Shown here: one piece after another, positions 5,546-43,520 of the stretch
How the letters are laid out: every line of letters starts with the position of its first letter
Position numbering within the stretch: position 1 is the stretch's first letter
Assembly (NCBI GenBank): GCA_008632985.1
Contig: QPGO01000292.1
Span: 1 to 64,000 of the forward strand
Length of the DNA: 64,000 bases
Reading direction: 5' to 3'
DNA from: Psammoneis japonica
Taxonomy: Eukaryota
Position numbers and translations under genes: made by a program
The notes under the pieces: model-generated
Database searches by the model: none
The model's input: the letters and a program-made list of their open reading frames with translations, nothing else
What the model was told of the DNA's origin: nothing

Positions 5546-6485
5546 TTTTTCAGAAAATAAAACAGGGAGAACGAAAGTCTCCACTCAGTTTATGACATGA
5601 AGTAGCTTCCTGAAAGTGGCTAATCGTGCTGTAGTGGTATAAGGAAAACTGAAAGGCAGGTTAGCGCACAAGCAAAGACGAAGCTCTTTCTCGCTCGGCT
5701 GTCATCGCGAGTGTCAGTGTTTTGTTCTGCTCGCGGCTCGCGATCGCGGTGGTCGGTTGCGGTTCAACAGGTCGGCAGAAATCAATGTCATTCATCATTC
5801 ACGAAGCATTTTTAATGATACTTTTGTTCATTTATATCTCCGAACATAATATATTTTAAAGGTCACGTGGCTTCATCGCGTGTGACGCGACAGGAGTGAT
5901 CGAGGGCGTCCGCGCGCGGCGCGCGGCTGCATTCAAGAAAACTTTCGGCCGCGTTGCGCGTTGCCCTGTTGACCTGTTGCCACATTGCGCTGCACATTGT
6001 TGTTGTTGTTGTTGCGATCGAAGAATCACCACCGTCCTCTCCTAACGCAAACGAACAAACAGAATCAATGAGCCCAAGCAACCTTTGCGCCTTTTTAAAC
6101 CAAACGACTGTGTCCAATGAAAGTGCCGGAGAACAGCAAGAGAGCGAGACGTGCAAGAGCCTGTCTGTTGCTTGGATTTGCCAGAGAATTTGTGCAATCA
6201 ATTCAAGCATTTGTTCGATCGCATCATCGTCTTGCTCAAAGTCAGCATCCATGAACGGGAAGACATCCAGCAAGCAGCAGGAGAGCAGATCTCCGATCTC
6301 ATCACACAAGAAGTTGCCAAGGAACCGATTCTCGCAAAGAGCTGTTTACAAGGGGAGAAAAAAGATTGATTTTTGGAATTCGCAAAAATGCAAATGGATG
6401 GTCTTTGCTGACCGCGGTTTGCAAGAGCACTCATCGGAATCCCATTCTTCATGAGGCCGTCACACTTCTGATCAATGACGTGTTC

Positions 6486-6761
6486 TGACAGGATTTGAAC
6501 AGGATTTGGGTGCGCGCGAAGTGTCGCGCGCTGTTTAGTTTACCGCGCACAGTTTTGTGTGCTTTAGTTCCGCGCGTTCACGCGCGATGTAGTTTGCTTT
6601 CGAGCCACAAGGCTCACAAGGATGACAACAGCAGCCCGATTGTGCCGACTTGCACGTCTTTCGGCTCCTGCAACGGTCTCTGAGCGGAGACTCATCTGCC
6701 ATTTAGACAGCAGTGAGGAGTCATTGTTTGAATTCTTGCCATTTGCCTTCAATTTCTGTCA
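6486..6761 (+). repeat. 5' LTR of Copia element 1
   Basis: Direct repeat of 12075-12350 with TG...CA ends. Confidence 0.95.
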
Positions 6762-7702
6762 GATTGACAGTCTTGCTCATTGTCAACCCATTGAGCAACC
6801 GCCATCGTTGTTGTTGATTCACCAACGACGCCATTTCAATCCTGCGTGGACCTCCGCATGTGTTCTACATGCGTCGGCAAGTCTGCGCGCATTCAATGCC
6901 AGGGCATCGGCAGGAAGTTAACGTCACCGTCAAGTCTCCTTACCGCTGGACATCTGGATTGATCACACTGCCTTTGATCGCTGAAGACACATGTTCAATG
7001 GTCATGTCCAAGTCCATCCTTGATCAACATCCCTTGACACACCCATTCCTCGGTTAACGGTCAAGAACCCCACATGTTCAAGGATCTCAGTCGCTGAAGA
7101 CATGTGTGTGTGTGCATGTCTTCACGGCCAAGAACCTTTACCCACTCTTCGGACTGCGGTTTTGCCACCACTCTACAAGCACACCGAGTCCATTGCACCT
7201 GATCTGCCCCGGACTGCTGGTGCTCTGCAGTTCTGCCAGGTCCCACGAGGACGACTGTGAGAGCAAGCAGCCGTGATTGCAGCCTACGTTGGGGGCGAGG
7301 GTGCTTTCCTGCGTTTGTTCGTTCGTCCACAGCACCCAACGCCTGTGTCAACTGGCCAGCCTGATCGGGAAATCCAACCGACATAAAATGAGAACGGTTC
7401 AGGGGTCTTGTCCACCTCTAGTCAGCTTACCTGCAGGGGTTTACAACCCGCTACTCCGCTCGTAAGCAACCCAAAGCGCCACTGGCTGCGGGTTCAGACG
7501 TGCCGGCACAACTCTGCGGACCGGACAGGAAGTTTAGCACTTGACAACGAACGGGATAGCAAAGCCCGGCGACTTCTGATTTTAAGACAGTTCAAGATTT
7601 CAAGTCAAGTCCACCTCAAGTCAAGTCTGTTCTCACCCAAGTTTCGAGTCTACCTTCGCTTCCCAACCAGAATTGATTGTCCTGACACCACTTTTGTCTG
7701 CC

Positions 7703-10700
7703 ATGGTTCTCACTCGTCAGCAACAAACCGATGGTTTCGAGCACGTTGTTGGAACCGTGCTTGCCCAAGGTGCTGGGAGTCCTCTTCGTTTGGCTTTGGC
7801 CCAAGACGGCACGGACTCGCATCAGGAACTGTTCACGTTCATGCCGTCCCAAATCGACTCGCTTGAGTACGACAACGGCACTGATGTGATCCCTTTGCCC
7901 CGTGGTCATAAGAACATGTTAGCAGCACTAGTTAGTCTGTACATTGTCAAAGCACACAAAGGTCTTGACGTTGCCAACGACTCCTCTTTGTTCACGCATG
8001 ACGAGTTCCTTGCCCACCGCCTCAGCCCCGACTGCATGTCTTCTGTGTCCATTGGCAGCTCACCCCTTGCACCTCCGCATGTCACCAACCCGACCAAGGC
8101 ACGCGACCCGGTGCGGGACTTCAAGCGAGGCATCAAGCGTGATCCCACCGCTTTCACGGCTCTCAAATCCGACAAGCAGTGGCACACTTGGCACACCTCA
8201 CTTGTGGCACAAGCCCGTGCCCAAGACGTCGAGTGCATTCTAGACTCGTCGTACAAACCGACCAGCCCCGAAGACAAACTGCTCTTTGCTGAACAGCAAA
8301 AGTGCATGTTCGCCGTCTTCGAACGCATCCTTCTCACCGACAAGGGCAAGGCTCTCATTCGCGAAAATGTGGGGTCTTCTGACGCACAGACCATCCACCG
8401 CGCCTTGTCTGAGTGCGCGCTTGCCTCCACCCGTGCATCTGTCGAGTCCTCCACCCTGCTCACGTACCTCACCACCGCACGTCTTGGTGATGGCACTTGG
8501 AAAGGTCCGACCCACGGGTTCATCCTTCATTGGCAAGATCAGTTGCGCAAGTGCGAGGCACTCATCCCGGCCAGTGACCACTTCTCTGAAGGACAGAAGC
8601 GCGTCATGCTCGAGAATGCCGTGCACCCTGTCGAGGAACTCCGTGCTGTCAAGAACCAAGCTGATCAGCATCGTGCGCAGAGTGGCAAGAGCCTCACACA
8701 CGATCAATGCTGTGGCTTGCTCCTCTCCGCGGCAGCTCAGCACGACAGCACGTTTCAACCCAAGACGACACCTCGAGCTCCCCGACGCGCCACACACGCA
8801 CACGACGTCTGCTCCGAGGAACCGTCTGACGATGTGTTCTACGACATTGACAGCGACATTGACGTCCTTCAGGCCAATGCTGCCCACACCCGCGGTCCCA
8901 GCCTCACCGGTGACCAATGGAGACGTCTCCCTCCCGACCACCAACGGATCTGGGATTCGTTGCCCGATTCCTCCAAGGCGATCATCCTTGAGCATTCTCG
9001 TCCGCCTCCCCGCAACCCGCGAGCCAGTGACTGCCATGAGTCTGTTGCGGCCAACCTTCACGACCAACGCCTTGGGAGTGACGGTGATGTCAACTTGTCC
9101 AACACGACTCCTGCTGACTCTGGTGACTCCGCTCCAAATGTGGGTGCCAATTTGGACAATCCCATCATGGCGCACCTCACCAAGTGCAAGTCACTGCCAC
9201 CCGGTGATCTGCAACGTCTGTTGTCTCCTAACCAAGCCCCCAATGCTAGTCGACCGGGGCCATCCGCCGCTTCCTCTGCCCCGCCAGCTTCTGCAGATGA
9301 CATGGAACTCAACGGCCGCACTTGCCGCCGCGTCAACAACCACAATGTCATTTGCTCTGCCTCTGCTCATCGCTCCACACGCACTGGCGCTCTAGTCGAT
9401 TGTGGGGCCAACGGCGGCATTGCTGGCGACGACGTTCGCATCATTGCACGCACCTCTCACCAAGTCGACGTTCAGGGCATTGACGATCATCAATTGGTGG
9501 ACATCCCTGTTGTCACCGCTGGTGCCGTCATTGAGACCCAGCGTGGTCCCGTCATCGCCATCCTCCATCAGTGCGCACACACGGGCAAGGGCAAGACCAT
9601 CCATTCCTGCGGCCAGCTCGAATGGTGCAAACAGGATGTCAACGATCGCTCTGTCAAGGTGCCCAACGGCTTGCAACGCACCGCCACTCCTGATGGCCAT
9701 GTCATCCCCATTGACATCAAGGCCGGCCTGCCTTGTGTTGCCATGCGACCTTACACTGACGCCGAATGGGACACCCTGCCCCCACCTGAACCCATCATCA
9801 AATCTTGCCATGACGACAACCCCATCGATTCTCCTGATGGGGAGATCAGGACACCCAAGATGCCAGTTTTCGATCCGCAAGACATCATTGGACGCACCTT
9901 CCTCATGCAGCCACAAGAGGACGGACAACGCCACAGAGCTCGCATCGTCAAGGCCGTCGAAGACCACGAATGGAAAGTGAACGGCAATCCCGAGCTCACT
10001 GAGTTCGTCTGCTCTGTCAACAATGACGAATGCGAGGAAGTCCTTGCCTGCAATGACATCATGAATCACATTGAGCAAGAAGACGAAGACACTGCTGTTT
10101 GGAAATTTCGACGCATCGTGTCACACGAAGGACCTCTGAAGCCTCACGACCCAACCTGGAAAGGCTCAAGCTACAACATCATGCTTGAATGGGAAAGTGG
10201 GGAGATCACGTCCGAGCCTCTTGCCATCATCGCCAAGGACGACCCCGTCACCTGTGCCATCTACGCACGAGAGAACGGACTCCTCGACACGGATGGCTGG
10301 AAGCGGTTCCGCACCATCGCGAGGCACCAAAAGAAGCTGTTTCGCATGGCCAACCAAGCCAAGCTTCGCTCCTTCCGCACTGCACCTCGCTGCAAGCACG
10401 GATGCGAAGTTCCCCGGAACTGCAAACACGCCATGTCACCAGACGAACGCAACGGCAACCGCAAGTGGGGAGACGCAACTAATCTCGAGATGGACCAACT
10501 CACTCCTCCTGCGGGACACAAGAAGATCCGAGTGCACCTGGTGTGCGACGTGAAACACGACGGTTGCCACAAGGCATGACTCGCAGCCGATGGGCACCTC
10601 ACGGACGTACCCATCGATGGTGTCTGCTCCGGAGCAGTCTCCCTCCGTGGCCTTCGGCTGATGATTTTCCTGGCCGAACTCAACGAGTTGGAGACATGGG

Positions 10701-12030
10701 CCACCGACATTGGCAATGCCCACCTTGAAGCCACCAACAAGGAGAAGCTTTACATTGTAGCCGGACCTGAATTTGGCAAACTCGAAGGACACATCCTTGT
10801 CATCCACAAGGCACTGTGTGGACTGCGCAGCTCCGGTCTCTGCTGGCACGAGCGCTTCGCCGACTGCCTGCGAGCTGAAGGCTTCTTCCCCTGCCGCGCC
10901 GAACCCGACATTTGGATGCGCAGGAACGGCGACCACTGTGAACACATTGCCGTTTATGTGGATGACCTCGCCATTGCCATGAAGGACCCTCAATCTTTCG
11001 TCGACACTCTCACGGAAAAGCACAAGTTCAAGCTCAAGGGTGCGGGACCCATTGAGTTCCATCTGGGTTGCGACTTTTCCCGGGATCCCGACGGAACCTT
11101 GTGCCTGTCTCCGCGCAAGTACATCGAGCGCATGGTCGACAGCTGTGCCCGACTGTTTGGGGAGAAACCCACCACCAACGCCCTGTCACCTCTAGAGAAG
11201 GGTGACCACCCCGAACTGGACACTTCCGAACTGCTGGGACCCGATGGCATTCACAAGTTCCAGTCTCTTGTTGGTTCACTCCAATGGGCAGTGTCCCTTG
11301 GTCGAATTGACATTGCCACGGCCGTCATGTCACTCTCTACCTTCCGAGCTGCACCCCGTCAAGGCCACTTGGATTGTGCCAAATGCGTCTGTGGGTGCCT
11401 CTCCAAGATGCGACACGGTGCTCTCCGCGTTCGCACGGAAGAGCCCGACCATTCGGATCTCCCTGCTCCGGCCTGTGAATGGATGCATTCCGTGTGTGGC
11501 GAAGCAGAAGAGATGATCCCGAAGGACGCTCCACCGCCCCTTGGCAAGTTCGTCACTGCCACCCACTGCGTCGATGCAAACTTGTGCCATTGCATGCTCA
11601 CCGGACGCTCTGTCATGGGAATGCTCCACTTCCTCAACAAATTCCCGGCTGATTGGTTCTCTGAGAAGCAAGCCACCGTGGAGACTGCGACCCACGGGTC
11701 TGAATTTGTTGCCGCAAGGACTTGTGTTGAGCAGATCATCGACCTGCGCATCACCCTGTGCTGCCTTGGCGTCCCGATCCGCAATGTCAGTTGCATGTTC
11801 GGTGACAACAAGTCGGTTGTAGACAGTGCCACCATCCCGCACTCCAAGTTGCACAAGCGACACACCGCACTGTCGTTCCACCGTGTGCGCGAGGCAATTG
11901 CCTCTGGTTGCCTTGAGCTCCACTTCATCGAAGGCTCCCGCAACCCTGCTGACATTCTCAGCAAGCATTGGGGTTGCTCCCAAATCTGGGACCTTCTCCG
12001 CCCCCTCATGTTCTGGAACTTCATTCCATC
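7703..12030 (+). pseudogene. Copia gag-pol remnant (gag, protease, RT, RNase H); integrase core missing
   Basis: ORFs 7673-10579 and 10661-12181 lie in the same frame, separated by TGA at 10577-10579 (HKARL -> HKA*L). No HHCC or DDE motifs between the protease (~9.4 kb) and the region after ~9.8 kb. Confidence 0.85.
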
Positions 12031-12074
12031 CGAAGTCGAATCTGTTTCTGTGACTCCTCAAGCAAACTGGGGAG

Positions 12075-12350
12075 TGACAGGATTTGAACAGGATTTGGGT
12101 GCGCGCGAAGTGTCGCGCGCTGTTTGGTTTACCGCGCACAGTTTTGTGTGCTTTAGTTCCGCGCGTTCACGCGTGATGTAGTTTGCTTTTGAGCCACAAG
12201 GCTCACAAGGATGATAACAGCAGCCCGATCATGCCGACTTGCACGTCTTTCGGCTCCTGCAACGGTCTCTGAGCGGAGACTCATCTGCCATTTAGACAGC
12301 AGCAAGGAGTTGTTGTTTGAATTCTTGCCATTTGCCTTCAATTTCTGTCA
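12075..12350 (+). repeat. 3' LTR of Copia element 1
   Basis: Direct repeat of 6486-6761, followed by the target-site duplication TGTTC. Confidence 0.95.
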
Positions 12351-13779
12351 TGTTCCAGCTCCAGGTGGGACCTCGCAGTGCTGAACTGTGACATCAATGG
12401 TTTTTTGGATCGCGCCGCATGTCACGCACACAGATGGCTACGTGTGATGTTCTACAAAATTGTTTCATGCTTCCCATTTTGCGAAGCCAAAGGCTTTCCA
12501 TTTTCAACATTTGTGACAATGAAAGTGTGCTGGGTGTGTTCTTTGATGTCTGTAGAATGTGCCCATGCAAACCATTGTTCATGTGCCACAAGTGTGAAGG
12601 AGGAGATACGTTCGTAAAATTGCCTCTTTTTCTGTTGGCAATCATTTGTGTTTCAATTGATCAACAAATTTAACATGGAGCTTGCACGCAGAAGTCTGTG
12701 GGCCCAATGTCACACGGAGTCCCACCTGGGATTGGAACCCGTCCAATGTCAACCCGCATGCCTTGCTGTGGAAATGGGGCTGCAAATGCTTCCCTCTGGC
12801 ATGCATCACCTCGGAACATTGTGCTTTGATGCCCTGGATTGTGCGGAGCCATGCGTGGATTTTTGAGCACCCGACCATCATTCAAGACCACCACAAAATG
12901 CTTGAATGTGCCCTCATTCGATGCCATTGTGATGGAGATTGTGAGGCATCCGTTGTTCGTGGAGTCTTGGAGTTTCTGCCTGCAGCTCTAGACAAATGTT
13001 TCCCAGGCAGGTTGCAAGGCATTGTTTCAGGATGGGGAGAGTGCAACTTGGGCTTGGTGGAATGGATGGTTGAGAAGCATCCTGAATGCCTGAAACATCG
13101 TGACATGTGGGGACGGACTGCTTTGCACTGTGCGTGTGAGTCTCTTTCACCTGTTCACTGTGAAATGGATTTTGATCCATCATCAATGGAGAACAGGGCA
13201 AGCATTTGCCGCTTTGTCATGCAAGAGCATCCCGAGGCCATCCGCATCAAGGCACGATGAGGGGGCGGACTGCCACTTCATTGCCTGGCCCGCCAATGTA
13301 ACAGGAGACTGGTCCATGGCTCGTGATTGACATGTTGAAAGCACATCCCAAAGCTGCACACGTCAAGGCGTGCAACAATTGTCCAAAGTTGTCAAGTGTG
13401 CCTTTTGTCCAAGTGATCGGGCCACTCATGCAACAGCAGTCTCAGCTGAAACAAGAGGAAGAATCCCTTGAAGTTGGTAGAAGGCTCTTCAGGGGCTTTT
13501 CTGAGTCTGATGCGGGGGCTGGTGTTGTCCCCAAGAAAACCAGCAAAGCATTCTCCATGTGGGCAACAACTCATGTGGCTGCATTTCAGGATCAACGTGC
13601 TGCCCTTGAGGTGGAGATTGCAGGCATTCAAGAAGCTTTTGAAGGAGATGATGAGGAAAGTGACTTGGAAGGTGGAAGCGATGAAGACTCCTGCGCAGAC
13701 TCTGAAAGTGATGATGAGAGTCTGGGAGCCCAGGCCGACGCTGATGAAGATGATTTGGGTGAGGCGGATTAGGAAGCAA

Positions 13780-16700
13780 GGCCATTCTGAGCAACTGGCC
13801 CTGCGTTTGATGCCCGAGGTGTGGAGGTTGGGGCTGCGTCACTGTGGAGATGCATGCAAAGGCATTGCTGTGGGCATTTGTCACAATCTTGTCTCTTCAC
13901 CTTGAGAAATTGATGAGGAGCAAACTGTTGCAAATCAAATTGAGGCACAAATCAACAGTGCATGTCAGCGCACCGGGCTGGGCGCATTGCATTAGAATGT
14001 CAGCAACCCGGTGGATTGCAGGGCCCCACTTTGCACATTGGACGATTTGATGACTTGCTCATTGCCTGTGCAATTGTGTCTGCATGGGCTTTTGTGTCTT
14101 GACCAAGCTTCCAGAGTGCAAGGCAGGATTCATCACCTTGCAGCCACTGCCAGTGCAACCTCAAGTGCGGCATCTTTCTGTCAGCCATGTGCAGCTGGGT
14201 TTCAGTTTTTTCTTGACAGCAGCCACAAAAAGTGATGGCACTTGCTTTTGGACACAACAATGATTGGCCGTGCTTGCCACATTTTTTTTTCACAGGAACA
14301 ATGTTGTGATGACAACCAGTGGTGATTTTTACAAATGACAATGCCAACAACACAACATGCAACCCAAGCAGCATGATCCAGCAGAGGTGTCAGAGGGCAG
14401 GTGCTTTGGAAATCAGCAAAAGTGTCAGCAGCAGGTTGCTCTGGAAAAGAAAGAGACAATCTTTTTCACCCAGATGAAACACTTGCTTCATTTGAACACT
14501 GCACAAGTTCAAGGTGCCACTGTGACAATTTGGAGATCTTTCTGGGATGAGCAAATTCTGCTGGACAAGAAGTTGTTGTCACTGCCAGAAATGTCCTCAT
14601 GGAGAGGACTTCCTGCCTCTGTGTCAGAGTTGGTGCATTTGGCAGGGTCACACACACACAATGATGAAAACATCAGACAAAAAAGCCTGCAGGCAGGTGC
14701 ATCTGTGGGGGCACAACTTGTTTCTCCACCTCTGATGACTCACAAGCTGTTGTCTCTGATGCTCTCTTCAGCTCTCTGACAAGATCAGTGGTTTGCTTGA
14801 TGCTTGGTGCACTGTCAAAAAACTTCCAGGCATCCTCTCCCAGATGGAGTCTGCTGGCATGTGGCATGTGGTCAAGAAGATCTTGAAGCAGATGGCAGAG
14901 CACCAGAGCAAGCAGCTGCAGCTGGTGTGTGAGTGTTTGCCAAAAACCCACCTTGATGCCTGTTTCTGTTTGTGCCAAGTGCGCCAGTGTGTTGTCAAAT
15001 CACAAAATCAGCACAAGCCAAGTGCTGGCACCACACTTCATTCCTGCACTGCACATTTCCTGAGTGCAACACCTTGCATCTTGTGCCTCCATTCCACAAA
15101 CATGCTGTGTTGAGCAGGATGTGCTGAGAATGAGTCACATGGGTGTTGGAGTCACTTTGGCCTTCTTGTGCACACTGGGATGCCAGCAATGAAAAGAAGA
15201 GACCTTTGTTGCAGCAGTGCTGTTGCTCTTCTTTCTGCAGCAAAGTTCAAACAAATGACCCAGATTTCATCTGAGTCAAAGTTCACCCTCAAGCCAATCT
15301 GCCAAATTTTCAAAGCTTCTGCTTTGTGAATGAGCCAAGTGTGCAATGCGCCACATGAGGGCACCTGGTTGTTCACTAAAAAGAGAGAAGACCATCAGGT
15401 TCTTGGAGAAATGAAAAGTCAGAAAAGCAAGAAGCATGGGTGGGGGCTGTTGGACAAAAAAATCACAACCACACACCCAGCTGCTCTCTCAAAACAAGCC
15501 CATTGCAGCGGGGCTGGGACTTCTTCAGAGTTGCATCATTCTCCATTTTATGCTGATCAGCTTCTCTCAGATTGCTGCAGCACAGGATGAAGAAGAAACA
15601 AACAGAGACTGGCACAACATGAACACAAACACAGCATGCCACAACCTTCCAAAACAATTTTGCACACTCACAAAAAACTCACACCTCATGGCCAAGACAG
15701 CTCTGCCCAAAGAAATGCTGATGTTGCTGTGCTCTTGTCAAAAAAACAAACTTGTGAACAAAACATCTTTTCTTGAGTGTCAGACCAGTGCACCACTTCT
15801 TGTGTCAACCAGCAAAGTTTCAGTGTTGTTCTCCTTCTTTCTTCTTCAAGTTGACCATTGTTCTGGATCAAGTCCCACCCGCACTCAACACACTCTTCAA
15901 AAGAATGAAAACTTGGCAAGCACAAGGCACCAGAAAAACACAACCATGGCAAAGGAAACAGCCACTGAACAAGTGCACTTTTGGATGAAACTGATCTGGA
16001 CTGTGTTGGCACTTTTTGCTGTTTCAACCATTTTCTTTTTTCACAGGTTGTGGCTTGCAGCCCATTGCAACAAAACCCAGCTTCACATTTGTGGAGTGGC
16101 CAGAGCTCAATCAGGATGTTAAAAAAGCATTTTCAATTGCTGACTCCCAGACAGTGTGTTGGTGGTGTGTGGCGTGCAAGAGGAAATGGGAAAACTGCTG
16201 CAATTTTGAGTGCTTTGAAGGGATGGTGCAGAATGATCTCTGTGGGGCTTTCTAAAAAGGGGCACAATGAAGTGCAACATGAGTTTGTCAAAAAGTTGTC
16301 AGGCAGGATCAGTTTTCATTCTTTGCTGCAAAGCCAGATGGAGATTTTGACACAGATTTGTTTGCCGCCTGTCCTGTGTGACCCAGCCATTGTTGTGTCA
16401 ATGAAAGTCCACACTGCTGCAGAAGAGGTTTTGGAGGGATTGCTTGTGATGTGAAAAATTCTGCCGTGCAATTGGCTCAAACAAGATGAGGGTCAACAAG
16501 CAAGGCTTGTTGTGGATCTGTCCAGTTTGTGAGCAGCCACTTCCTCTGGGACAGACCTCACCAAAGTGTGTGTTGCTGAAGCTCACATTGGACCATTCTC
16601 ACAACCAGAGGAAACACTTTGCACTAACCAAAGAATGCCAAAAAGTTTCAAAGATCTTTGATGTTGATTAGAATCCACCACAAAATTGATTGTTGAGAAA

Positions 16701-17640
16701 TTTGTCCCCAGTGTGCTCACACTGCAGAAGGGCAGAAGGTGTGCTGCACTCTTCTTCAAGACAGGAGGCCTCTTTTTTGATGCTGATGTTGTGAAGGAGA
16801 TCATTGAGGAGATTCCAGGCAAACAGAAAAAAACATTGCTTGGGATGAATGAGACTTCATTCTTTTCTGTGACTTTGGTCAAGACATCTTCCACGACTTT
16901 TTCCACAGTTGTGGCTGGTTCTCCAACTCACATGCAGCTGCACATTGTGGAGCAATCAAGCAAGTTGGAGCCATGATGCTGCTGCTTCTCACTGCATGGC
17001 ACAAAGGAGCTGGCAGGCTTGTTCCTTTTCAGCCCTGCACAAAGCACACAAAAACTCCATGTGCTGGCCCAACCACCAAAGCATTGTCACAGCAGGCACA
17101 ACTTGCATGTGTGGTGCTTTGCCATCTCCAACACCACAAACACCAAACAAGACAACAACAGCATCTCAACCACTTCTTTTGTTCTCTGCAAAGTCTCTGC
17201 CATTTGGCATGTTGGTGTTGTCATTTGTGTGAGTTGCTCTTGCTCTTGCATTTTTTTTTGTGTGGCACAGGTGGCACTGGCATGTTGGCAGAGTGACTCC
17301 AAGACCTCCCTGTGATGTTCTTGGCTGTGCTCAGCTGAGAATGTTGATGCTTGTTGTGCTCAGCAGATTTGTTTTGCTCAACCAAGAATGGCTTGTTCAG
17401 CAACATGCATTTTTGTCCCCGGCTGCTCACCTGTGCATTTCTGATCAGCAAAGAATGATGTCACCTCTTGTTGTGTGCTCACTCAGTGGTTTCTTGTCAA
17501 TGCAACAGAATGAAGAAACTCCAAGCACACACTCCAAAAACGTGAAAAGCAAGGCCCCACCACAGCCAAAAACTCTGCGTGATTTCAGCAGCACTGAGCT
17601 GCTTGTGTCAAAACCCGATGACAGCAGTGCCGTGCATGAT
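13780..17640. other. Heavily degenerated DNA nearly devoid of both TpA and CpG (TG/CA-rich); original element not identifiable
   Basis: By eye, only a handful of TA and few CG dinucleotides in about 3.9 kb. ORFs are Cys/His/Gln-rich and nearly Tyr-free. Confidence 0.75.
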
Positions 17641-17659
17641 GAGCGGCCTTCGTTGCTGA

Positions 17660-17995
17660 CAGTGTGGTGACGAAACCACCTGGGGCCACGTGGGTCATGG
17701 AGAAGCTGGCAGCGGGATTGCCAGTTGCACAGTTGGAAAGCCTGGCATCACCAAGGGCGGTCAGACAGTGATCACATCCGATGTGCACCGGATGCGACCT
17801 CGGGCTTTTGTGTTCACCGACACAAATTGCACCCATGGACAGATGGATGGGGTGCCATGGGCCCGATGGAAATTTGCATGATCTTGGAACAAGCAGGCGA
17901 AATGGTGGATTACGGCAGTGTGGGTGACGACGCCGGACCCAAGAAGACATTCCCAGGAAAGCCGCACGTCACATGTGACAACCACTTTGACGGTT
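17660..17995 (+). mobile_element. piggyBac-like transposase fragment (frameshifted)
   Basis: CGDETTWG (D at 17669), KPGITKGGQ, RPRAF/HRHKLH and KPHVTCDNHF (17977-17988). These resemble the piggyBac DE and T.DNYF catalytic motifs, with Y->H. Confidence 0.6.
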
Positions 17996-19246
17996 TTTGG
18001 GCAACCTTGCTGAGTGGAGTCATGAGTGTTTTGGTGAGTGCATCCGCCGTCAAGTTTCTTCCCATTGCGGCCGAATGGGTTCCAGGCTTTACTCTTGGCA
18101 TGGGTCTTGTGGGCGTTGGATTCTCGCGGATTCTTCTTTCTCTCCAGGGGCCAACAAACAGAGCGCAGATTGTGGTGCGCGGCACGTGGTACGTGCGCAC
18201 GCAGGATCAGATTTTTTTTTTCTTGCGGGCATGATGGCGGCGCGGTTGACCCACAGGCTCAAGTTCAAGAAATGGGCTGGTGTGAAGGGCCGCCACGTGA
18301 ATCCCATTTTGCGAACATGGGTTGGCCTGCGCGTCTTTTTGCTGTCTTTTCTACGTGTGTTTTAGCAATGAAATTACGTGCAATCTGAGAATTTTGTTTC
18401 TCCCTCCGACACGGAAGCGAGAGCCTGTTTCTTTGCCATGACGCGACTGTGCCGGCATCTGAGTCGTCTGAAGAATGTGATGATTTCAAAGAACATGATG
18501 TCACTGTGAATGGCAACTCTAGATGCAATGTCACCAATTGCAATGGAAGTTTAAAAAATCAATGCCGCTGCAATCGCAATTGCCACAAACAGATTGTTTC
18601 ATTCTGCAGCGGCATCCACCTTGTCGCAGGGCTTCACGGTAGATTGTGCAATGTGAGCATCAACAGATTCAATGAGGGAATCACACAAACCACAAGCCAT
18701 CAAGTCCATCCGGAATGGTTCAATTTGAATGTGGGCTTGAGATTCGGGAGTGTCGGGATCAGATTCAAGTTTCACTGAACGGCAGCACCTTTCATTTTTG
18801 TTGGACTTTCTGCGAAATTCAACCAAGCCCTTGGATCCAGATCCCTTCTGGATTGAATCCGGTGCATCACTTTCGGCTGTTCCGACTGGAATGCCGCTAA
18901 CCTGGAGCACACGGTGAACGTCTGATGCGTTTGGCCAATTCCCATCAAAGCTTGCCAAGACGTGTGCTGTCAAAAGAATGAGAGCATTGTCAACTCTCTT
19001 TTTAACAGGACAACAACTTTTTTCCTTTCCTGCATTGCTGCTCTTTTCTTGCTGGATGCCATGCCCACAGTGCAAGAACGACGTTGACGGTTGATGATGT
19101 TGGTGTGAGAAAAATGGAAATTCAAATGACAAGTGCTGAATCACGCAGAGATGTGCCGTACGTGCCTTGTCATCGCTCGCAAGATCGCTCAACGCTTGGT
19201 ACGTGGTGCGGCCATGGCGAAAAAGAGACGGCATTTTCACAACAAA

Positions 19247-19340
19247 GGAAGGTGGGGCATCGGTCGCCGACGGCATGTTCGAGCCTTTAGAGCATCGAAA
19301 GGGACCAATGCAATTGTCGGCGACCGATGCCCCACCTTCC
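19247..19340. repeat. Perfect 25-bp inverted repeat with a 44-bp spacer
   Basis: GGAAGGTGGGGCATCGGTCGCCGAC (19247-19271) and its exact reverse complement (19316-19340). Confidence 0.9.
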
Positions 19341-19685
19341 ATTGTGCTCAAAAATCGCGACGGCGTGACGGCGCCATTTTGCCGTGCTTTGTCGCGGTGA
19401 AAAAGGCATGAGAGGTCACGAAAATCCACAATCTGACGGACAGATGACGGACCAAATGTTCGCCAAAAAGGTCACAAATCGGCACATATAAAATTATCTT
19501 AAATGATGGTTGTCAAACATTTGTCCGTTGAGGCGACATGCCAGCCCATTTGTTGAAGTTGAGCCTGTGGTTGACCGGACACACAGAATTGGAAGAGAAG
19601 ACCGCTAAGAGAGTAGAAACACACACACAAGAAACAAGGCTTCACATCACAGTGTATTTTGCTGGGGTCGCAGCGATACGGCAGC

Positions 19686-20660
19686 ATGTTGCTCAAGTTG
19701 ACAACTTTCCTGCTGACCCTTCTCTGCTGCTCAGTGGCGCCGGTGGAAGCAGCTGGCAACAATGATTGCCAGAACATTGACCAGAAATGTCCAGGTTGCT
19801 TTGGCTGCGCACTCTGGTGTCATGAAGTTGCCCATAAAGGCGGCACAGGCTATGAGAAGAAGTTGGTCTTGGTTGAACGAGCCACGGACTACTGCCTTGC
19901 GTCCAATTTTCCGAATGATGGCTGTGCCACAGGCCATTTTCCATTCTTCAGTTGTGAGAACGTCCAGCCCATTTCGGCAACATTCCATTCGTTCATTCCC
20001 GGTGAACTTGAGGTCTTGCGCTCTCCTGAGAGCATCTTCGAGGCCATTGACTCATTGAATGGCAACTTTGACGCGACGTTTGGCAGGCAAGAAAATGTCG
20101 CATCCTTGCAGGAACGTGTCGCCCTGCGCAACTTCACCGAACAAGCCTTCGAGAATGCACTCCTCGATGAAACGATGAGTCCAACCGTCTCGAACAAGCT
20201 CCACGAAGATTTTAGGCTCGATGTAAGTGCTTCCAAGTTGGCAGAGTTGACATCTGCAGAGAGCATCCGTCGCATGTATGATGCTTTCCAGGCATGTGAA
20301 GCTGTCCCAATTGCCAGCATCATTCTCCGTCGCAATTGCATGGAAGGCAACACACACATTGAGTGTCATCATGATGGAAGCATGGCCGTCATGCATGTCT
20401 GGCTGAACGACGATGGTTTAGAAGGAGGCAACCTGATTTGCCTCAATGGTGACGGATCCACCACCGTCGACACAGAGCCTGGCTCTGCTGTGTTTCACGG
20501 ATGGGACCTTGTCCATGGGGTGAACAGTTTCAACGGCACTGGGTGCATCCCAATGTTTGGAGGACAGAAGAACTGGCAGCAAGACATCTTCGCTGACATT
20601 CTTAACTTGGATTCGTCGGAAGACGCAAATGCCGACGGTTCTGTCAATGCTGAACTGTGA
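19686..20660 (+). CDS. Signal-peptide protein with a C-terminal 2OG-Fe(II) oxygenase-like domain; TpA-depleted, possibly inactivated
   Basis: Hydrophobic N-terminus MLLKLTTFLLTLLCCSVAPVEA. HxD (CHHDG), LND...EGGNL and distal HGV motifs. The usual GTRY-like motif reads GTGC. Confidence 0.6.
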   Translation: MLLKLTTFLLTLLCCSVAPVEAAGNNDCQNIDQKCPGCFGCALWCHEVAHKGGTGYEKKLVLVERATDYCLASNFPNDGCATGHFPFFSCENVQPISATFHSFIPGELEVLRSPESIFEAIDSLNGNFDATFGRQENVASLQERVALRNFTEQAFENALLDETMSPTVSNKLHEDFRLDVSASKLAELTSAESIRRMYDAFQACEAVPIASIILRRNCMEGNTHIECHHDGSMAVMHVWLNDDGLEGGNLICLNGDGSTTVDTEPGSAVFHGWDLVHGVNSFNGTGCIPMFGGQKNWQQDIFADILNLDSSEDANADGSVNAEL

Positions 20661-21013
20661 TTTTGATGGAACACCATGCGATGCACCAATTGGGACACCC
20701 CACTTTTTTGTTCAGCTTCATCATTTTCAGTTCTTCATTTCCTTGGCATTGTGTTTAGTCCAATCACATCTTACATCGACGCCCTGCGGCATCCGTCCAA
20801 CGTCTTGGACGTTTCAATGCGCTTTTCACAGATTTTAATGCGACACAATGAACTGTCCCGCACATTGGTCCCTTCCTTTGGAGTGCCTTGCTTTTGGTGG
20901 TTGCAAGTCGGAATTGGGATTGAGGAGGCCAGCGGGTCACTTTCAATCATCTTTTGCTGCAGTGAGGGACCAGGGACCGCGATTCTGGTGCTGGCTTGAG
21001 TGCATTCAGACAG

Positions 21014-22002
21014 TTGGATAAATGCTGTGTGATGATGCTGTGCACAACACATGCCCAAATGTGTGTGCGGAGAAGGGACTCAACAATTGGCCGAGTGGCA
21101 ATTTCTTTGCCTCTTGAGTTGTTGAGAACCTCCCGCACTCGTTGGGCAGGGTGCAGCATTCTGAGTGGTTATGAGTCTTTGCGCTTCCTGAGGTCGCTGG
21201 TTCGAGTCGGCCTCAAATCCAAGCCTCCTTTTCTTTCTCGGCCTGCCCCTTTTCTGCCCCATCCGGGGTGGGCGGTTGGGCTTCGAACCCACTCCTCCCT
21301 TGGCATTGGCCGGATGCGCCACATGGCGCTAACCCATCCGCCTGCCTGACAGAGGGAGTGCATGGTCAAATTCGTAAGTCCGCCGTGCGGATGCGCCACA
21401 TGGCGACAACCCATCCTGCGACGAGAGGGAGAGTTGGATAAATGCTGTGTGATGATGCTGTGCACAACACATGCCTAAATGTGTGTGCGGAGAAGGGACT
21501 CAACAATTAGCCGAGTGGTAATTTCTTTGCCTCTTGGGTTGTTGAGAACCTCCCGCACTCGTTAGGTAGTGTACAGTGTTCTGAGTGGTTATGAGTCTTT
21601 ACGCTTCCTGAGGTCGCTGGTTCGAGTCGGCCTCAAATCCAAGCCTCCTTTTCTTTCTCGGCCTGCCCCTTTTCTACCCCATCCGGGGTGGGCGGTTGGG
21701 CTTTGAACCCACTCCTCCCTTGGTGTTGGCCGGATGCGCCACATGGCGCTAACCCATCCGCCTGCCTGACAGAGGGAGTGCATGGTCAAATTCGTAAGTC
21801 TGCCGTGCGGATGCGCCACATGGCGACAACCCATCCTGCGACGAGAGGGAGAGTTGGATAAATGCTGTGTGATGATGCTGTGCACAACACATGCCTAAAT
21901 GTGTGTGCGGAGAAGGGACTCAACAATTGGCCGAGTGGCAATTTCTTTGCCTCTTGGGTTGTTGAGAACCTCCCGCACTCGTCAGGCAGTGCACAGCATT
22001 CT
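21014..22002 (+). mobile_element. Tandem TRIM-like array (LTR-internal-LTR-internal-LTR, 420-bp period)
   Basis: 149-bp repeats at 21014-21162, 21434-21582 and 21854-22002. The internal 271 bp starts with GGTTATGAG (tRNA-Met-type primer site) and ends with the purine tract GAGAGGGAGAG. GACAG flanks both ends (21009-21013, 22003-22007). Confidence 0.8.
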
Positions 22003-22007
22003 GACAG

Positions 22008-25000
22008 TGTCAGATGCGGGGTCGCTGTTCGAATGTCACAGGATCAAAGGCACGCAAGTGCTCACCGAGTTTGTCGCGTGCCACCCGTCACACGCACTGA
22101 GCACTCGTCTCAAGGCCTGCTGGGAGAGCCCAGAAGTAGCTGAACGGTCTGATGCGATGGACGAATCAGCCTTCTTTGACACCCACGAGGAACTGGAACC
22201 TCTCGACGACCAGAAGCATTTCTTTGACGCTCTTGAGGACTTCATCCCGGATTTCTTCCGGTTTGACGAGCTCTGTCTGCCGCATCATGTCGTGGACACT
22301 GCCCATTTTCAAGATCCTGTGGAGCTGTTGGAGGAAGCAAGTGTTGGACCAGTCGTCCACAACACCTCCACCATCCAACTGCTCACCGGACAATCACAAG
22401 CCGACCTCCTTGCATCCGATCCGCAGGCACTCATCGGTCTGTCGGACGAGGCTCTCACGGTCGTCATGGATGCTGGTGCCACGCCAGCTGTTGCCCCCGA
22501 CAAAGATGATTTTACGGGGCCTGTGACTGCTCCCAAGAAACCCTTGCAGATCAATGGGATTGCCAACGGTCTTGCCATCCAGGGTGCCGGTCCGGTTGCG
22601 TGGGTGTTCACAATGCCGAGTGGGGCTACCACCCAACTGAACACCATGGCATGCCACGTCCCTGGAGCCCGTCAGCGCCTGCTGTCGCCTCAACGCCTCT
22701 TCAACGAAGAGAAGGGGGCACGTGGGAAGTGTGAGGGCGATGAAACCACTTTCCGTTTACACATTGACGGGATGGGCAAGTTGGCCGTGCCATGTCATCC
22801 ATCAAGCCACTTGCCTGTTGCGTCGATGACCAAGGGCGTGTCTGCCGCTCCTCAAGTGAACCTTCAGATCCTCAACGAGGAGAATCAAAACCTCACGGCA
22901 GGCCAAAAGCTTCTTCTCGAAATGCACGCCCGTTTTGGCCATTTGAACTTTGGTCGCGTCCAAGCACTTCTCCGCGCAGTTCCGTTCCTTTCGAACCATT
23001 TCAAGTCCGCAGCGAAGTGTGACCACCCAAGATGCGAGGCACGCAAATGTGCTAAAGGTCATGGACGCTCTCTTGGATCTACTCACAAGTCGACAGTCCC
23101 TGAACGCGACGGGGCCCTTCGAGCTGACCATCTTCGACCGGGTCAGGCTGTCAGCGTTGATCATTTTGAGTCGCGCCTTTTGGGCCGCACCTTCGACTCT
23201 TATGGCAAAGCCACGTCCAAGCAATTCAAGGGCGGTTGCATCTTTGTCGACCACGCCTCTGGCTATGTCCAGGTCGAGCACCAACTGGGTTTCTCCGCTG
23301 TTGAGACGATGCGCGCGAAGCAAGCGTTTGAGAAACATGCTTTGGACCACAGGGTCATCGTCCAAGATTTTCTTGCCGATGGTGGCGCTTTCAAGGCCAA
23401 CGCTTTTGTACAACACACACGAGAACATGAACAACGTCTCCGTTTTTGTGGAACCAATGCCCATCATCAGAACGGCGTCGCAGAGCGGGGTGTCCGCAGC
23501 ATCTCCAACATGGCGAGAGCGATGTTGCTTCATGCATCAATCCACTGGAAGGGGGGAATTGACAGCTCCCTGTGGCCCATGGCAGTTTCTTGTGCCACGC
23601 ACATCTACAATGTCACCCCAAATTCCAAAGGACATTGCCCAGCGGACATTTTCACTGGTTCGACAGTGCCAAGACATCGGTTGCGCGACATTCACACATG
23701 GGGATGTCCAGCGTACGTGCTTGACCCGACCCTCGCTTCCGGGAAGAAGCTCCCGCGTTGGGAGCCTCGCACTCGTCGCGCTTTGTTCGTGGGACTCAGT
23801 GCCATCCATTCCAGCGAGGTTCCTTTGGTCCTCAATCTTCAAACTGGAAGTGTTGCACCTCAGTGTCATGTGGTCTTTGACGATCTCTTTACTGCCGCAC
23901 CATCAATTGAGAGGGAGACGGATCCACCTGATCACTGGGAACACTTGTGCCTCAACCAATCGACATGCATCCCTCTGGAGAAGGATCAGGCAGTTCATTC
24001 ACACGATGAGTGGCTCACCCCTCCAGAGCGTCAACGTAAAGAACGAGAACTAGCCAGAGCAACACGCATTCGCGGGCATTTTGAGCCTGCTCCATCGATT
24101 GCTGTGCCGGATTCACCCACTTCTCGCGACGACGTCACCGATCGAGTCGCACCTGCGACTCAGCAGCCAACGCCACCAGTCCCACCTGCGACTCAAACTC
24201 CTACAGACTCTACGGACTCTACGCCAATTCAGCCACCTGAACCTCAAGATGGTAACGGACTTCCGCCACCCGAAGCACCAACGGAACCAACAGCTCCTCC
24301 CCCAGTCGAGACACCTCCCATGACGAATCCAGAGGGAGTGCCAGGGCTGCGACGGTCTTCACGGTCAACCAAGGGACAGTTCAACTCTGCCAAGTTTGTA
24401 GATGAGGTCTGCTTCAGCTCCGTCGAGGAAATGCCGCTGCCGATCAGACACGAGGCTCAACTGGCGTATCTGGCGACTCTCGAGACGGATTTGGACAGTG
24501 GTGCCATCAATGTCGGCGATCCACGAGCCCACGCAGCTAGCAAGAAAACCAAGGACCCTGACACGCCTTCGTTGCACAATGCTCTGAAAGGTCCGGACGC
24601 CGACGAATGGATTGAGGCGATGAAAATTGAAGTCAACGCACTCATGCATCGTCGAGCCTGGAAAGCAGTCGAGCGTCAGCCGCACATGAATGTACTTCCA
24701 GGCACATGGGCACTAAAGCTCAAGAGACTCCCAGATGGAACCCCTCTCAAGCACAAGGCCCGATGCTGCGTCCGCGGTGATTTGCAGAAAGAAGGAGTCG
24801 ACCACTTCGAAACCCACGCGCCGGTTGTGCAATGGTCCAGTGTCCGACTCATGCTCACTGCGGCATTAAAGGAGGGATGGACTGCACGACAGGTGGACTG
24901 TGCCACAGCCTTTTGCCAAGCTGATGTCGCCGAGGAAGTCCATGTAACACCGCCGAAGGGATTTGCACCAAGGTCGGGACTCAACATGGTTCTCAAACTT

Positions 25001-26250
25001 TTGAAAGGACCACACGGCCTAAAACAGTCTCCCAAGGGCTTCTACGAGAAGTTGCGAGCTGGTTTAACCGAGCGCGGATGGGTGCCTTCAGCCACAGATC
25101 CCTGTTTGTATTTCAAAGAGGGCATGATGTGTGTGGTGCACGTCGACGACACCGTTTTTGCTGGAGCTTCAGCTGAAGCTCTAGAAGCCGAAATTTGCAA
25201 GTTAGGAGTCTCCGACGACGAACATCGCCACGCACTTGAACTTAGAGACGAAGGAGAAGTCGGTGACTTTCTCGGCATCAAGATCGAAAAGCTCTCCGAG
25301 GGTCGATTTCTACTCACTCAACCCGGTCTAATTGACAAGGTCCTACGTGCCGCACAGATGCAGGATTGCAATGGAGCATCTACTCCAGCTCTGCCTGCGG
25401 CCATTGGTGCTGACACGGACGGGCTACCTTTTGATGAACCCTGCGATTATCGCTCAGTTGTTGGAATGTTGATGCACTTGGCAGCGAACAGCCGGCCAGA
25501 CATTGCACATGCCACACATCAAGTGGCTCGATTCTCGTTTGCGCCCCGAGCGTCCCACGCTGCTGCAGTGAAGCGGATGCTCCGATGCCTCAAAGCAACT
25601 GCTGCTGAAGGTCTCATTCTCAAGCCTGCGCAAGATCATCGAGTTGATTGTTGCGTCGATTCTGACTTTGCGGGGTCATTTGGTGTGGAAGATGGTCAAG
25701 ACCCAGTTTCTGTCAAGTCCAGGACTGGATGCCTTGTCTACTGCGCCGGCTGCCCGCTGATCTGGGTGTCCAAGCTGCAGACTCTTGTGGCATTGTCGAC
25801 TGTGGAAGCGGAACATGTCGCACTTTCTCAAGCCATGCGCGATCTCATCCCCATTCGTGAAGTTCTCAAGGAGCTCAACCACCACGCATTCGGAAAGTCT
25901 GACCGCCAAAACCCCATCACGACCCACTCCAAGGCTTTTGAGCTCGCAACCCAAGGCACCGATGACTCGCCTGTAGAGCAGAATGTCCCACCTACGTCCG
26001 TTGTGTACGAAGATAACTCCGCGTGCCTCAAGTTCGCACGTGTGCCCAAGTTGTCTCCGCGAACCAAACACATCGGTGTCCCGCACCACTGGTTTGGGAC
26101 TAAAGTCGAACAATTGGAGATCGACATCCAACCTATCAGCACTCTAGAGCAACTAGCCGATCAGTTCACGAAGGGACTACGGACCGATGCGTTCCGTACG
26201 GCTAGAAAGGCTCTTATGGGCTGGTAAGCTCTCTCGGTTGAGAGGGAGAG
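22008..26250 (+). mobile_element. Second Ty1/Copia (CoDi-like) retrotransposon: pol (protease, integrase, RT, RNase H); gag and 5' LTR not found
   Basis: Open frame to 26227 with VMDAGAT (protease), HARFGH (zinc finger), VSVDHF/LADGG/NGVAER (integrase), VHVDDT (RT) and VDSDFAG/EDN/LADQFTK (RNase H). Purine tract GAGAGGGAGAG at 26240-26250; a putative 3' LTR follows. Confidence 0.9.
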
Positions 26251-31950: not shown

Positions 31951-32002
31951 TCTACATCCTTTTGGATGAACATATCAGCGGGACTATGCGTCTTGTACCA
32001 TG

Positions 32003-40153: not shown

Positions 40154-40165
40154 GAGAAACGGTAG

Positions 40166-41919: not shown

Positions 41920-43520
41920 ACGAACCAGCAGCTATCACAATGGTTGCGAGCTTTTTGACGCGGGCGAAGCGGAAAGCGAGACGAAGCGGCTGCGGTTTCC
42001 AAGTTCCTCTGTCTTATGAGCTCGTAAAGATAGTCCACTGGAGAGGGGTCGAAAAAAATCATCATAGATGCGACGGCCTATCCGTCAATGTCATGCAGAC
42101 AAAGCTACCTATTGAAGGTATTTGTTTCAAGAACGAAAACAACAGTGGCCAGTTTGTACCGGTAATGGATATTTGAACCAACAAGAAAAGGCTGCAAAGT
42201 TGTTGTCTAGTTTAAATCTACAAGTGCCATAAAAAGCAAAGGAAGTAATACTTACCGTGCCTCCTTAATACATATAAAGCCGCGAAGGAAGATTGTTGAG
42301 TAGGGGTCTTTTGCCCCGGGGTTTTGATGGAGAGTATTTTTTTTTCGTTCTGTGGGCCTGAGCCAGGGCAGCTGTGCCCGAGGAGGGGGATGCCGTACTA
42401 CTAAGCTCGCCTTTTACACCACTTAGCAGGGTCTTATACCCTTTCTCACCTCAGATGCTATTCACTCCTTATCTTAGTTTGGCCTCTTTTCAATTTTTTG
42501 GTTGCTCAATAATACCACACGGTATAGACTTTGGTGGATAACAAGTGTCACTAGCCGATCCACCCCTGTCCTGCGGGAAGGCGTATCCACAGTAATACTG
42601 ACAGAGTCCCGGTTCTAGTGCCTTGTTTCCTTTTTAATGTCTCAGAACGCTCTCGTCACCAAGGACTGTTTTGTACTGGAGGAAGAACCCGCTCCACATC
42701 ATACGCAATCACAAAAATGAACGCAACTACACCCAAGCCGAATCCAGCGTAATCCAACCAATCACCACAATCATCCGTCATCATGAAATTCCAATAGTAA
42801 GCATTGAAGGAAAGAACAGCATCATGGACACTGAGACGCTCCTTCTCAACATACGAATGAAAACAATCAATCACACGGATGATGTGTGATGCTCCACAAT
42901 CGGGGTGTCAAACCATCGACAAGAAACCCTCAATCTCATGTCGTGGAGGTTCTGGAAGTCGAATATGGACTCTAAACAAACGCCACGCAGAGTCCAAACA
43001 CGAGATACAGTTCCTCTACGACACGAGACTGAGAACACTACTTCTTCGAGTCGACGGCGATCATGGTAGCGGCAGGCATCACGCAGGCGTTGTCTGACTT
43101 GGCTATAGAAAAGTCCATGGTTGAGAAAGCATACAATACAAACCGCGGCCTTCGTTCTTACCCCAAAAACAACCCTGACAATCCTCTGTTTCGATGAATT
43201 GTGACCAGCGTGAGTGATGTTCCGATAAGGGCATCACGCTCAGCGACATACCAGGAATGCGTAGATTCTACACGAGTTCCGAACCACGACTCATTTCACG
43301 ATTGTTAGGATCAGGTTTTGCGAGTGTCATGAAGGTGTTGGCTAAAAACTTTGACGGAGGAAGTGTGCTGAAAACGGCATCCACGTCCAACAGCCACGTC
43401 GAGTCGTCGTCCTCGTCGCCTCGTCCCCGCTTGCTTTTTCATGGTGATGCTGGCCGCGCCGGAGGGAAGTTTCGCAAGTTGAAGTTCCCATGCGATCTTT
43501 CTTGCGCGAGTTTGAAAATC
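41920..43520. repeat. Copy 2 of the ~1.5-kb direct duplication
   Basis: Matches 37420-38990. Includes the 72-aa ORF at 42656-42874 with 4 amino-acid differences. Confidence 0.9.

Follow-up and report, generated by a model that had tools for sequence, protein, structure and literature searches.

Tandem-repeat copies and transposon blocks in a window of the diatom Psammoneis japonica genome point to TpA-to-CpA/TpG hypermutation of transposon DNA

Point hypermutation directed at transposons is known as cytosine deamination, in fungal repeat-induced point mutation (RIP) and in APOBEC action on complementary DNA (cDNA), or as RNA editing. RIP changes C:G to T:A at CpA (CpG or TpCpG in some fungi), yielding TpA and AT-rich, stop-rich sequence; it is premeiotic, is triggered by duplication, affects both repeat copies and needs an enzyme of the RID/DNMT4 type. 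APOBEC3 deaminates cytosine on the minus-strand cDNA before integration, leaving G>A on one strand. ADAR hyper-editing and the ADAT-type mRNA editing of fungi operate at the RNA level, with a preference for a 5' U, and mark one strand. Very-short-patch repair in Escherichia coli, with its scarcity of CTAG, is a weak bias that acts genome-wide and can go no faster than replication errors arise. Here we describe a 420-bp tandem array and the retrotransposon material around it in a 64-kb window of the diatom Psammoneis japonica, the window being the whole stretch analysed (positions 1 to 64,000, forward strand, of contig QPGO01000292.1, assembly GCA_008632985.1). The three copies of the array differ almost exclusively at pyrimidine-purine (YpR) steps, and they probably record a transposon-confined hypermutation of TpA to CpA or TpG that acts at the DNA level.

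The described systems are treated for fungal RIP in PMC2621366 and PMC3318451, for A-to-I RNA editing in PMC3197674 and for APOBEC3 editing of retroelement cDNA in PMC479043. According to PMC9998398, many diatoms encode a DNMT4 enzyme related to fungal RID, whose function is unknown, and diatoms methylate their transposons; its passages on this subject do not mention hypermutation. We found no report of TpA>CpA/TpG hypermutation in the literature, in a search whose full-text coverage left most subscription journals outside.

Tandem Repeats Finder detected a single array at 21012-22004 (period 420, 2.4 copies, 95% matches, 0 indels), made of two full units, c1 and c2, and a partial unit, c3 (Table 1). 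We compared the copies column by column, and states are given below in the order c1/c2/c3. Both three-state sites, reading TG/TA/CA at 21143/4 and 21152/3, lie inside a hot-spot cluster of adjacent YpR steps. The other sites read CA/TA/TA (21056), TG/TA/TG (21089), CA/TA/CA (21099 and 21147) and CA/TG/CA (21157/8), and the part present in c1 and c2 only shows TG/TA at 21181 and 21256, CA/TG at 21304/5 and CG/TG at 21284 and 21381. Outside this pattern are two columns: at 21117 (A/G/G) the change is a transition but lies in no YpR step, and at 21150 (G/T/T) it is a transversion. Overall, 16 of the 18 variable columns are transitions inside YpR steps, which make up 47% of the array columns (binomial P = 3e-4). 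Where any copy has TA, 8 of 12 steps vary, against 4 of the 87 remaining YpR steps; 22 CpG steps are unchanged across all copies, and in the comparison of all copies no step pairs TA in one copy with CG in another. The first-pass annotation had listed these sites, the c1-c2 differences (TG/TA twice, CA/TG once, CG/TG twice) and only two outliers, and all of this was reproduced. The observation is real and beyond chance. Its statement that the middle copy is the least hit agrees with the 12 TA steps of c2 against 4 in c1.

Self-comparison of the window as assembled found no further copy of the 420-bp unit in the 64 kb, and nothing from 20500-22300 recurs elsewhere in it. A 25-base conserved stretch of the unit had no match in metagenome contigs or viral contigs, and no spanning contig was found among the short read contigs of the matching runs. 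Unit variants do occur in those contigs, namely one that lacks 6 bases at 21300 and accounts for about 40% of the depth, and another joining 21485 to 21180. tRNA-like pieces in the unit were considered and rejected (ARAGORN 0, Rfam 0 at the gathering score); the sole Rfam matches, to speF at E = 0.7, are chance.

The first-pass annotation had also taken TA as ancestral on the ground that it is the only observed state one step from both TG and CA. This parsimony argument from three copies is insufficient, because CG is likewise one step from TG and CA and the comparison is unrooted. The conclusion itself stands on other evidence, from outgroups of the copia reading frames, from the reads and from the baseline TpA frequency, and TA as the ancestral state, changed by T>C or A>G on either strand, is supported by these sequence comparisons.

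One line of evidence on direction comes from the open reading frame (ORF) that adjoins the array at 21899..26227. It carries RVT_2 (E = 6e-35, residues 920-1165) and aligns over its full length with diatom copia polyproteins at 38-57% identity, the closest relatives including Fragilaria crotonensis and MMETSP transcripts. Most homologues have about 800 extra N-terminal residues (gag) that this frame does not have, and a window-wide self-comparison found no long terminal repeat (LTR) copy or repeat pair bracketing it; the element has thus lost its 5' part and meets the array near 22004. We aligned 44 homologues, in which 637 columns are conserved in at least 70%, and the frame deviates at 106 of them. 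Conserved tyrosines are kept in only 5 of 28 columns, against 526 of 609 for all other residues (Fisher P = 7e-15), the replacements being mainly Y>H (9), Y>C (8) and Y>F (4); conserved isoleucines are kept in 14 of 26, with I>V in 8. The 69 unambiguous one-step deviations include 22 A>G and 19 T>C, with 3 G>A and 1 C>T in the opposite direction. A preceding T is found at 18 of the 22 A>G changes (10 of 14 when that T sits in the preceding codon), and 16 of the 19 T>C changes lie directly before A. Even the catalytic YVDD motif reads HVDD. The frame remains open because TAA and TAG codons have been erased. TA density is normal again from about 25974, some 250 bases before the copia stop codon (25974-26227), so the depleted domain and the element do not end at the same place.

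A second copia element, at 6486..12350, gave the same result when its ORF (10583-12178) was compared with 83 homologues. Tyrosine is kept at 2 of 10 columns and other residues at 100 of 114; the changes include six A>G, all after T, and four T>C, all before A, with two C>T, both at CpG, and one G>A making up 3 of 16 deviations. Tyrosine loss of this kind occurs in none of the 44 and 83 homologues, whose median tyrosine retention is 93% and 82%. In codon terms the tyrosine loss of both frames is TAY>CAY/TGY, and these counts demonstrate both the direction of the process and its specificity for TpA. A single TGA in frame, at 10577-10579, divides the reading frame of the second element into parts of 997 and 533 residues.

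The LTRs of one insertion are identical at integration. Those of the second copia differ at 10 of 276 positions, all YpR transitions (CA/TG steps 3, CG/TG 2, TA/TG 1, TA/CA 1), with 19 CpGs intact, which shows that the process acts after integration. A 207-bp direct repeat pair (60644 and 61041) shows the same change across a block boundary: of its six differences, one is CG/CA and the other five pair a TA kept by copy 1, which lies in TA-normal DNA, with CA or TG in copy 2. An older direct repeat, 37440-38792/41977-43346 (1.4 kb, 89% identity), lies in ordinary DNA with genes for a hydrolase and an amine oxidase between its copies; its substitution spectrum is mixed and its TpA ratios, 0.68 and 0.70, are normal, so being duplicated is not enough to attract TA erasure. 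The named relatives of the amine-oxidase gene are all diatoms, at no more than 62% identity.

We computed observed/expected (o/e) ratios of TpA and CpG in 500-bp bins over the window. TpA is at 0.4-0.9 in bins of 1-6000, 26001-43500, 49001-51000 and 52501-61000, and at 0.00-0.3 in most bins of 6001-26000, 43501-49000, 51001-52500 and 61001-64000. The pattern is not special to the array but covers whole blocks of the window, and the array sits in the large nested-transposon domain as a TA-normal island (21257-21928). The process is confined to such blocks, whose edges are sharp to tens of bases (43343 to 43684 to 49248, and 61001 to 61144). CpG is also low in part of them, at 0.0-0.46 in 12501-17500, 43501-49000 and 51001-52500, with CpA/TpG there up to 1.8-2.0; within 14001-17500 there are 0-2 TA and 1-4 CG per 500 bp, and CpA/TpG stands at 1.8-1.9. 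CpG is normal in both copia elements and in 61001-64000, which makes TA loss and CpG loss separable. The doubly depleted stretches are all complex sequence rather than simple repeats. A Pfam scan of 36 frames of the depleted blocks gave none above the curated cut-offs, and a weak RVT_1 hint in 61002..64000 fell under the Pfam cut-off.

Stop codons follow the depletion. TAA and TAG number 4.1 and 3.5 per kb in TA-poor blocks against 17.1 and 18.3, about four times rarer, and stop-to-stop frames of at least 100 aa number 38.6 per 10 kb in affected blocks against 22.5; the long frames overlapping on both strands in 6001-25950 and 61002-64000 are due to this loss of stops. Among 80 related copia loci from metagenomes, the TpA ratio has a median of 0.63 (range 0.37-0.88), and only one, a 7824-base metagenome contig (L028), has a 1-kb ratio under 0.2 (0.16). 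That low-TpA stretch has a G+C of 0.57 and normal CpG, and could reflect a mild form of this process in a different organism. By these dinucleotide ratios the process appears absent from related elements elsewhere and restricted to this lineage. The c2 copy, at 0.58, resembles genes and the 80 related elements, and c1, at 0.21, resembles depleted transposon blocks. Since c2 and a second version of the left flank (0.53, described below) are at the unmutated baseline, the TA-poor states are the departure.

Strand symmetry and a context rule complete the description. The 68 inferred events divide into 34 A>G and 34 T>C, and the first-pass claim that mutation struck either strand is borne out by this even split. 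Its companion claim, that the copies mutated independently, is less secure, as the read depths given below suggest that the variants may predate the locus. Survival of TA, measured as depleted versus normal blocks by tetranucleotide, is lowest at ATAT (0.012), ATAG (0.029), ATAC (0.036) and ATAA (0.075), intermediate at GTAC (0.115), CTAG (0.18), CTAC (0.20) and GTAA (0.205) and highest at CTAA (0.40) and TTAA (0.46). They are fitted by multiplying one escape value for each strand, the strands being independent and each value depending on which base follows the changing A on its 3' side (T 0.11, C 0.34, G 0.43, A 0.68). Of 38 informative events, 28 struck the favoured strand (P = 0.0025); for the array alone the count is 12 of 16. 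The rule accounts for c1 and c3 being alike at 21089, 21099 and 21147 and yet different at the palindromic GTAC at 21152.

Read contigs add a view of the family and of the flank. At the hot spot, contig depths add up to about 5000 for c1, 2400 for c2 and 4900 for c3, and across the array and element to 2400-15900, against 40-79 in the flank and single-copy DNA; these depths are sums over all matching contigs and give no copy number, and their being far above the flank marks the family as multi-copy. Within the element, the family majority is TA at 22346 (100% of depth), where the window has TG, and at 22485 (97%) and 22762 (79%), where it has CA, and it is CG at 22288 and 22614, where the window has TG. 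The TA-poor flank to the left of the array exists in two versions, which differ at 30 places in 376 bases (20564-20939; also 20400-20716 in run X2). At 16 of the 30 differing places the second version shows TA against CA or TG in the window, with the reverse at 0 of 30, and its TpA ratio is 0.53 against 0.14 for the window. The depths of the two are similar (38 versus 31.7 for the second version), and they may be two haplotypes of which only one is TA-depleted. In the window, 540 bases of the TA-poor flank (20400-20939) match contigs exactly, and 20940-21008 differs from the sole contig covering it. The flank ORF at 19686-20657 has no homologue among 1425 candidates and so offers no outgroup.

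Table 1. Coordinates of the array, the transposon elements and the TA-depleted blocks in the 64-kb window (o/e, observed/expected ratio; RT, reverse transcriptase).
Feature	Position	Strand	Remarks
Array copy c1, full 420-bp unit	21012..21431	+	TpA o/e 0.21; 4 TA steps left
Array copy c2, full unit, TA-rich	21432..21851	+	TpA o/e 0.58; 12 TA steps
Array copy c3, partial, 153 bp	21852..22004	+	Passes straight into the truncated copia ORF
Hot-spot cluster, five adjacent YpR steps and the transversion at 21150	21143..21158		Homologous: 21563-21578, 21983-21998
5'-truncated Ty1/copia open frame, 1442 aa	21899..26227	+	Protease, integrase, RT, RNase H
TA-poor flank, 347-aa open frame	19617..21008	+	Second version in reads
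Second copia	6486..12350	+	LTRs 6486-6761, 12075-12350; ORF 7586-12181; TpA o/e 0.17, CpG intact
207-bp direct repeat pair	60644-60850 and 61041-61247	+	Copy 2 inside TA-poor block from about 61002
TA-depleted domain, nested transposon material	6001..25950		Sharp edges near 6100 and 25950
TpA- and CpG-depleted block	12501..17500		Complex sequence, no simple repeat
Second TpA- and CpG-depleted block	43344..49247		Sharp edges
Third TpA- and CpG-depleted block, short	51002..52334		Complex sequence
TA-poor GC-rich block, CpG intact	61002..64000		Long frames overlap on both strands

Elsewhere in the window, an open frame at 237-2081 contains four HMG boxes and internal repeats (611-982 and 1085-1548), and ordinary DNA carries short tandem repeats at 29961-30139 (89 bp x2), 32137-32252 (21/41 bp) and 34102-34361 (84 bp x3.1).

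We regard it as established, as far as sequence comparison can take it, that a change of TA to CA or TG operates in this region of the genome alongside ordinary CpG>TpG. At the array itself, the favoured polarity places the hits in two patches, 21056-21256 (within the first 245 bp of c1) and from 21929 into the ORF, with c2 in the spared island between them. The 22 CpGs left untouched in all array copies speak against a CG ancestor. A 917-base contig holds a stand-alone copy of 21431-21588 (the A segment) between unrelated flanks, with two differences from c2, one of which is an extra TA at 21556; the TA-rich state of c2 therefore recurs independently.

Several points weigh against this reading of the array. 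The outgroups lie outside the array's own sites, and TA ancestry, which we hold to be quite likely at the two three-state sites, requires parallel hits of c1 and c3 at five sites. When read in the frame of the adjoining ORF, c2 contains stops (TAA at 21476, TAG at 21563), and at three junction codons the homologue columns fit the CA states of c3 (A, H, I) better than the c2 states (V, Y, V). We give the junction-codon argument little weight, because 0 of 10 conserved homologue columns upstream match the window; the A segment may have only its last few codons homologous, and on this alignment it is not demonstrably coding-derived. Its frame was accordingly dropped as an outgroup, the MAFFT placement of residues 1-27 of P0001 being spurious. 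All three variants have multi-copy depths, so the hits may predate this locus. The window's letter occurs in no contig at 22484 and 22346, and the reads may be the assembly's own data, in which case their agreement with the window is not independent. Copy c2 stands spared within a depleted domain, to our knowledge no enzyme or DNA modification does what is proposed here, and the entire case is built on one 64-kb window.

A RIP-like deamination of cytosine would turn the polarity around: CA, TG and CG would be ancestral and TA derived, with c2 hit by C>T at CpA and CpG on both strands. At the three sites where c1 equals c3 and only c2 has TA, this is cheaper on an unrooted tree; the TA states of c2 form one contiguous patch (21476-21896), the c2 stops and the fit of the homologues to c3 would follow, and diatoms do have the RID-related DNMT4 enzymes introduced above (PMC9998398). 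It is nevertheless improbable. C>T and G>A are rare in both copia ORFs (4/69, 3/16) and TA>CA/TG dominates; the transposon blocks are TA-poor rather than TA-rich; c2 and the second flank version stand at the baseline of TpA and not above it; and each TG/TA/CA site would need a CG ancestor and four hits, yet 22 CpGs remain untouched. The TAs of c2 also occur in the separate copy elsewhere, and the coding argument is weak. Decay of methylated CpG alone would have the steps start as CG and be deaminated on one strand (TG or CA) or on both in succession (TA). CG is one step from TG and CA, CG/TG is seen at 21284 and 21381, CpG loss is real in other blocks and the family majority is CG at 22288 and 22614. 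But CG is found in no copy at the ten TA/CA/TG steps, the 22 CpGs are intact, TG>TA or CA>TA would require deamination outside CpG, and neither Tyr>His/Cys nor the loss of TA with CpG intact (copia TpA 0.17, CpG 0.86) would be accounted for, which leaves this account extremely unlikely. Just as unlikely is A-to-I editing of transposon RNA, by an ADAR- or ADAT-like enzyme with a 5'-U preference and fixed by reverse transcription. The elements are retrotransposons and A>G strongly favours a 5' T, but coding-strand T>C is as frequent as A>G (19 versus 22; 34 versus 34 overall), the same changes separate the LTRs of one insertion, the flank and unclassified blocks are hit too, and the edges ignore transcript ends, TA being normal from about 25974, inside the ORF.

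The copies may instead have diverged elsewhere, as variants of a family or master element later joined by recombination, template switching or gene conversion, in which case TA>CA/TG could still be the source of the variants. The high hot-spot depths over a flank of 40-79 are what this would give; 108 of 493 matching contigs are at least 99% identical to the window, 21556 is the sole array position among the best-supported variants listed, and the stand-alone A segment carries c2 states whose TAs are not derivable from c1 or c3. Set against this, the depths are sums over contigs, and the LTR pair and the 60644/61041 pair show action in place after duplication; we see this account as possible, though rather doubtful. 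An artefact, either from errors of base calling or polishing where repeats carry modified bases or from a false array built by collapsing alleles, draws on the finding of just 51% of sampled 31-mers of 19600-23600 in the best run, on the lack of a contig spanning the array, on the window's unsupported letters at 22346 and 22484 and on 20940-21008 being unlike the sole contig there. It is very improbable given the exact contig match of 20400-20939 and a discrete second version at similar depth, a TA loss that is complete over kilobases of complex sequence and obeys a multiplicative context rule, and coherent amino-acid consequences in two ORFs. A strand-mix base-calling error at a modified palindromic step was rejected, as there are no TA/CG doubles and the same long molecules would cover all copies. 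GC-biased gene conversion, which lacks TpA specificity, and selection against UpA in transcripts, under which catalytic and conserved tyrosines would not be destroyed, were rejected as well.

The explanation that we favour, hypermutation of transposon DNA at TpA, would work through an A:T to G:C transition at one of the two base pairs of the step, giving CpA or TpG. It would act on DNA, on either strand equally often, and would end once the step no longer reads TA. Its action would be confined to sharp-edged transposon-type blocks, in patches of a few hundred bases, and would approach saturation in old blocks, and CpG loss would be ordinary methylated-CpG decay, a separate and slower component of some blocks only. 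The ancestral TAs would survive in c2 and at the beginning of c3, both within a spared patch of the array, with c1 hit at 21056-21256 and c3 from 21929. The susceptibility of a strand would depend on the neighbour of the TA, in the order 5'-TAT > TAC > TAG > TAA for the strand whose A changes, which is why c1 and c3 would often have resolved the same TA alike. We infer that the process is enzymatic and aimed at transposon chromatin, on duplex DNA. Its chemistry may be deamination of the adenine of 5'-TA-3' to inosine, which is read as G, or a thymine modification that makes the base pair with G; because the TA step is its own complement, sequence does not distinguish the two.

How this compares with the described systems can now be set out. 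Like RIP, it is a transition hypermutation of one dinucleotide, repeat- and transposon-confined, patchy, on both strands, in saturating blocks with sharp edges, and it inactivates coding sequence. Unlike RIP, it changes A:T to G:C at TpA, so that TpA is destroyed, G+C rises and TAA and TAG are erased, and the host is a diatom. The direction is opposite, with A>G/T>C against G>A/C>T at 41:4 and 10:3 in the two copia ORFs, and the TpA gain and CpA/TpG loss of RIP are not seen in the affected blocks, where TpA/ApT is 0.03-0.34 and (CpA+TpG)/(ApC+GpT) is 1.3-2.0. As to repeat copies, one of the 60644/61041 pair and one flank version are spared, the blocks are transposon-like and the family is multi-copy. 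With methylated-CpG decay it shares the loss of a self-complementary YpR step to CpA or TpG on either strand, but here the step is TA, whose change to CA or TG such decay cannot produce and which is lost while CpG is intact in both copia elements and the array; methylated-CpG decay itself is present as a second component in 12501-17500, 43344-49247 and 51002-52334. Adenine read as guanine, a 5' T/U preference and dense clusters recall ADAR and ADAT editing, from which the equal strands and the post-integration changes set it apart. The likeness to APOBEC3 is that of a host-driven retroelement hypermutation with a dinucleotide context. Very-short-patch repair gives a similar net TA>CA/TG in a palindromic context through T:G mismatches resolved to G:C, but here the change is block-confined, over 90% of TAs are removed, and CTAG survival (0.18) is mid-range.

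The consequences for reading this genome are practical. Loss of stops makes dead transposons resemble long intact genes, such as the 1442-aa frame with its HVDD, and gene prediction is misled; tools based on RIP indices would miss the signal because its direction is opposite, and dating by LTR-pair divergence would be wrong in this genome. We put forward tentatively, as a possibility that is far from secured, that a genome-defence activity edits 5'-TA-3' in the duplex DNA of transposon chromatin as an independently evolved mirror image of RIP; with similar reserve, the activity might come from a naturally occurring deaminase of DNA adenine or from an enzyme that modifies thymine so that it pairs with G, in either case turning A:T into G:C on either strand until the TAs are gone. 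If so, it would leave stop-free, GC-enriched transposon fossils behind. A DNA-level, TpA-specific A:T>G:C process outside fungi would, if true, be a new branch of genome defence and would point to a natural A:T>G:C DNA editor of practical interest, and the pattern makes testable what diatoms do to their transposons beyond methylation.

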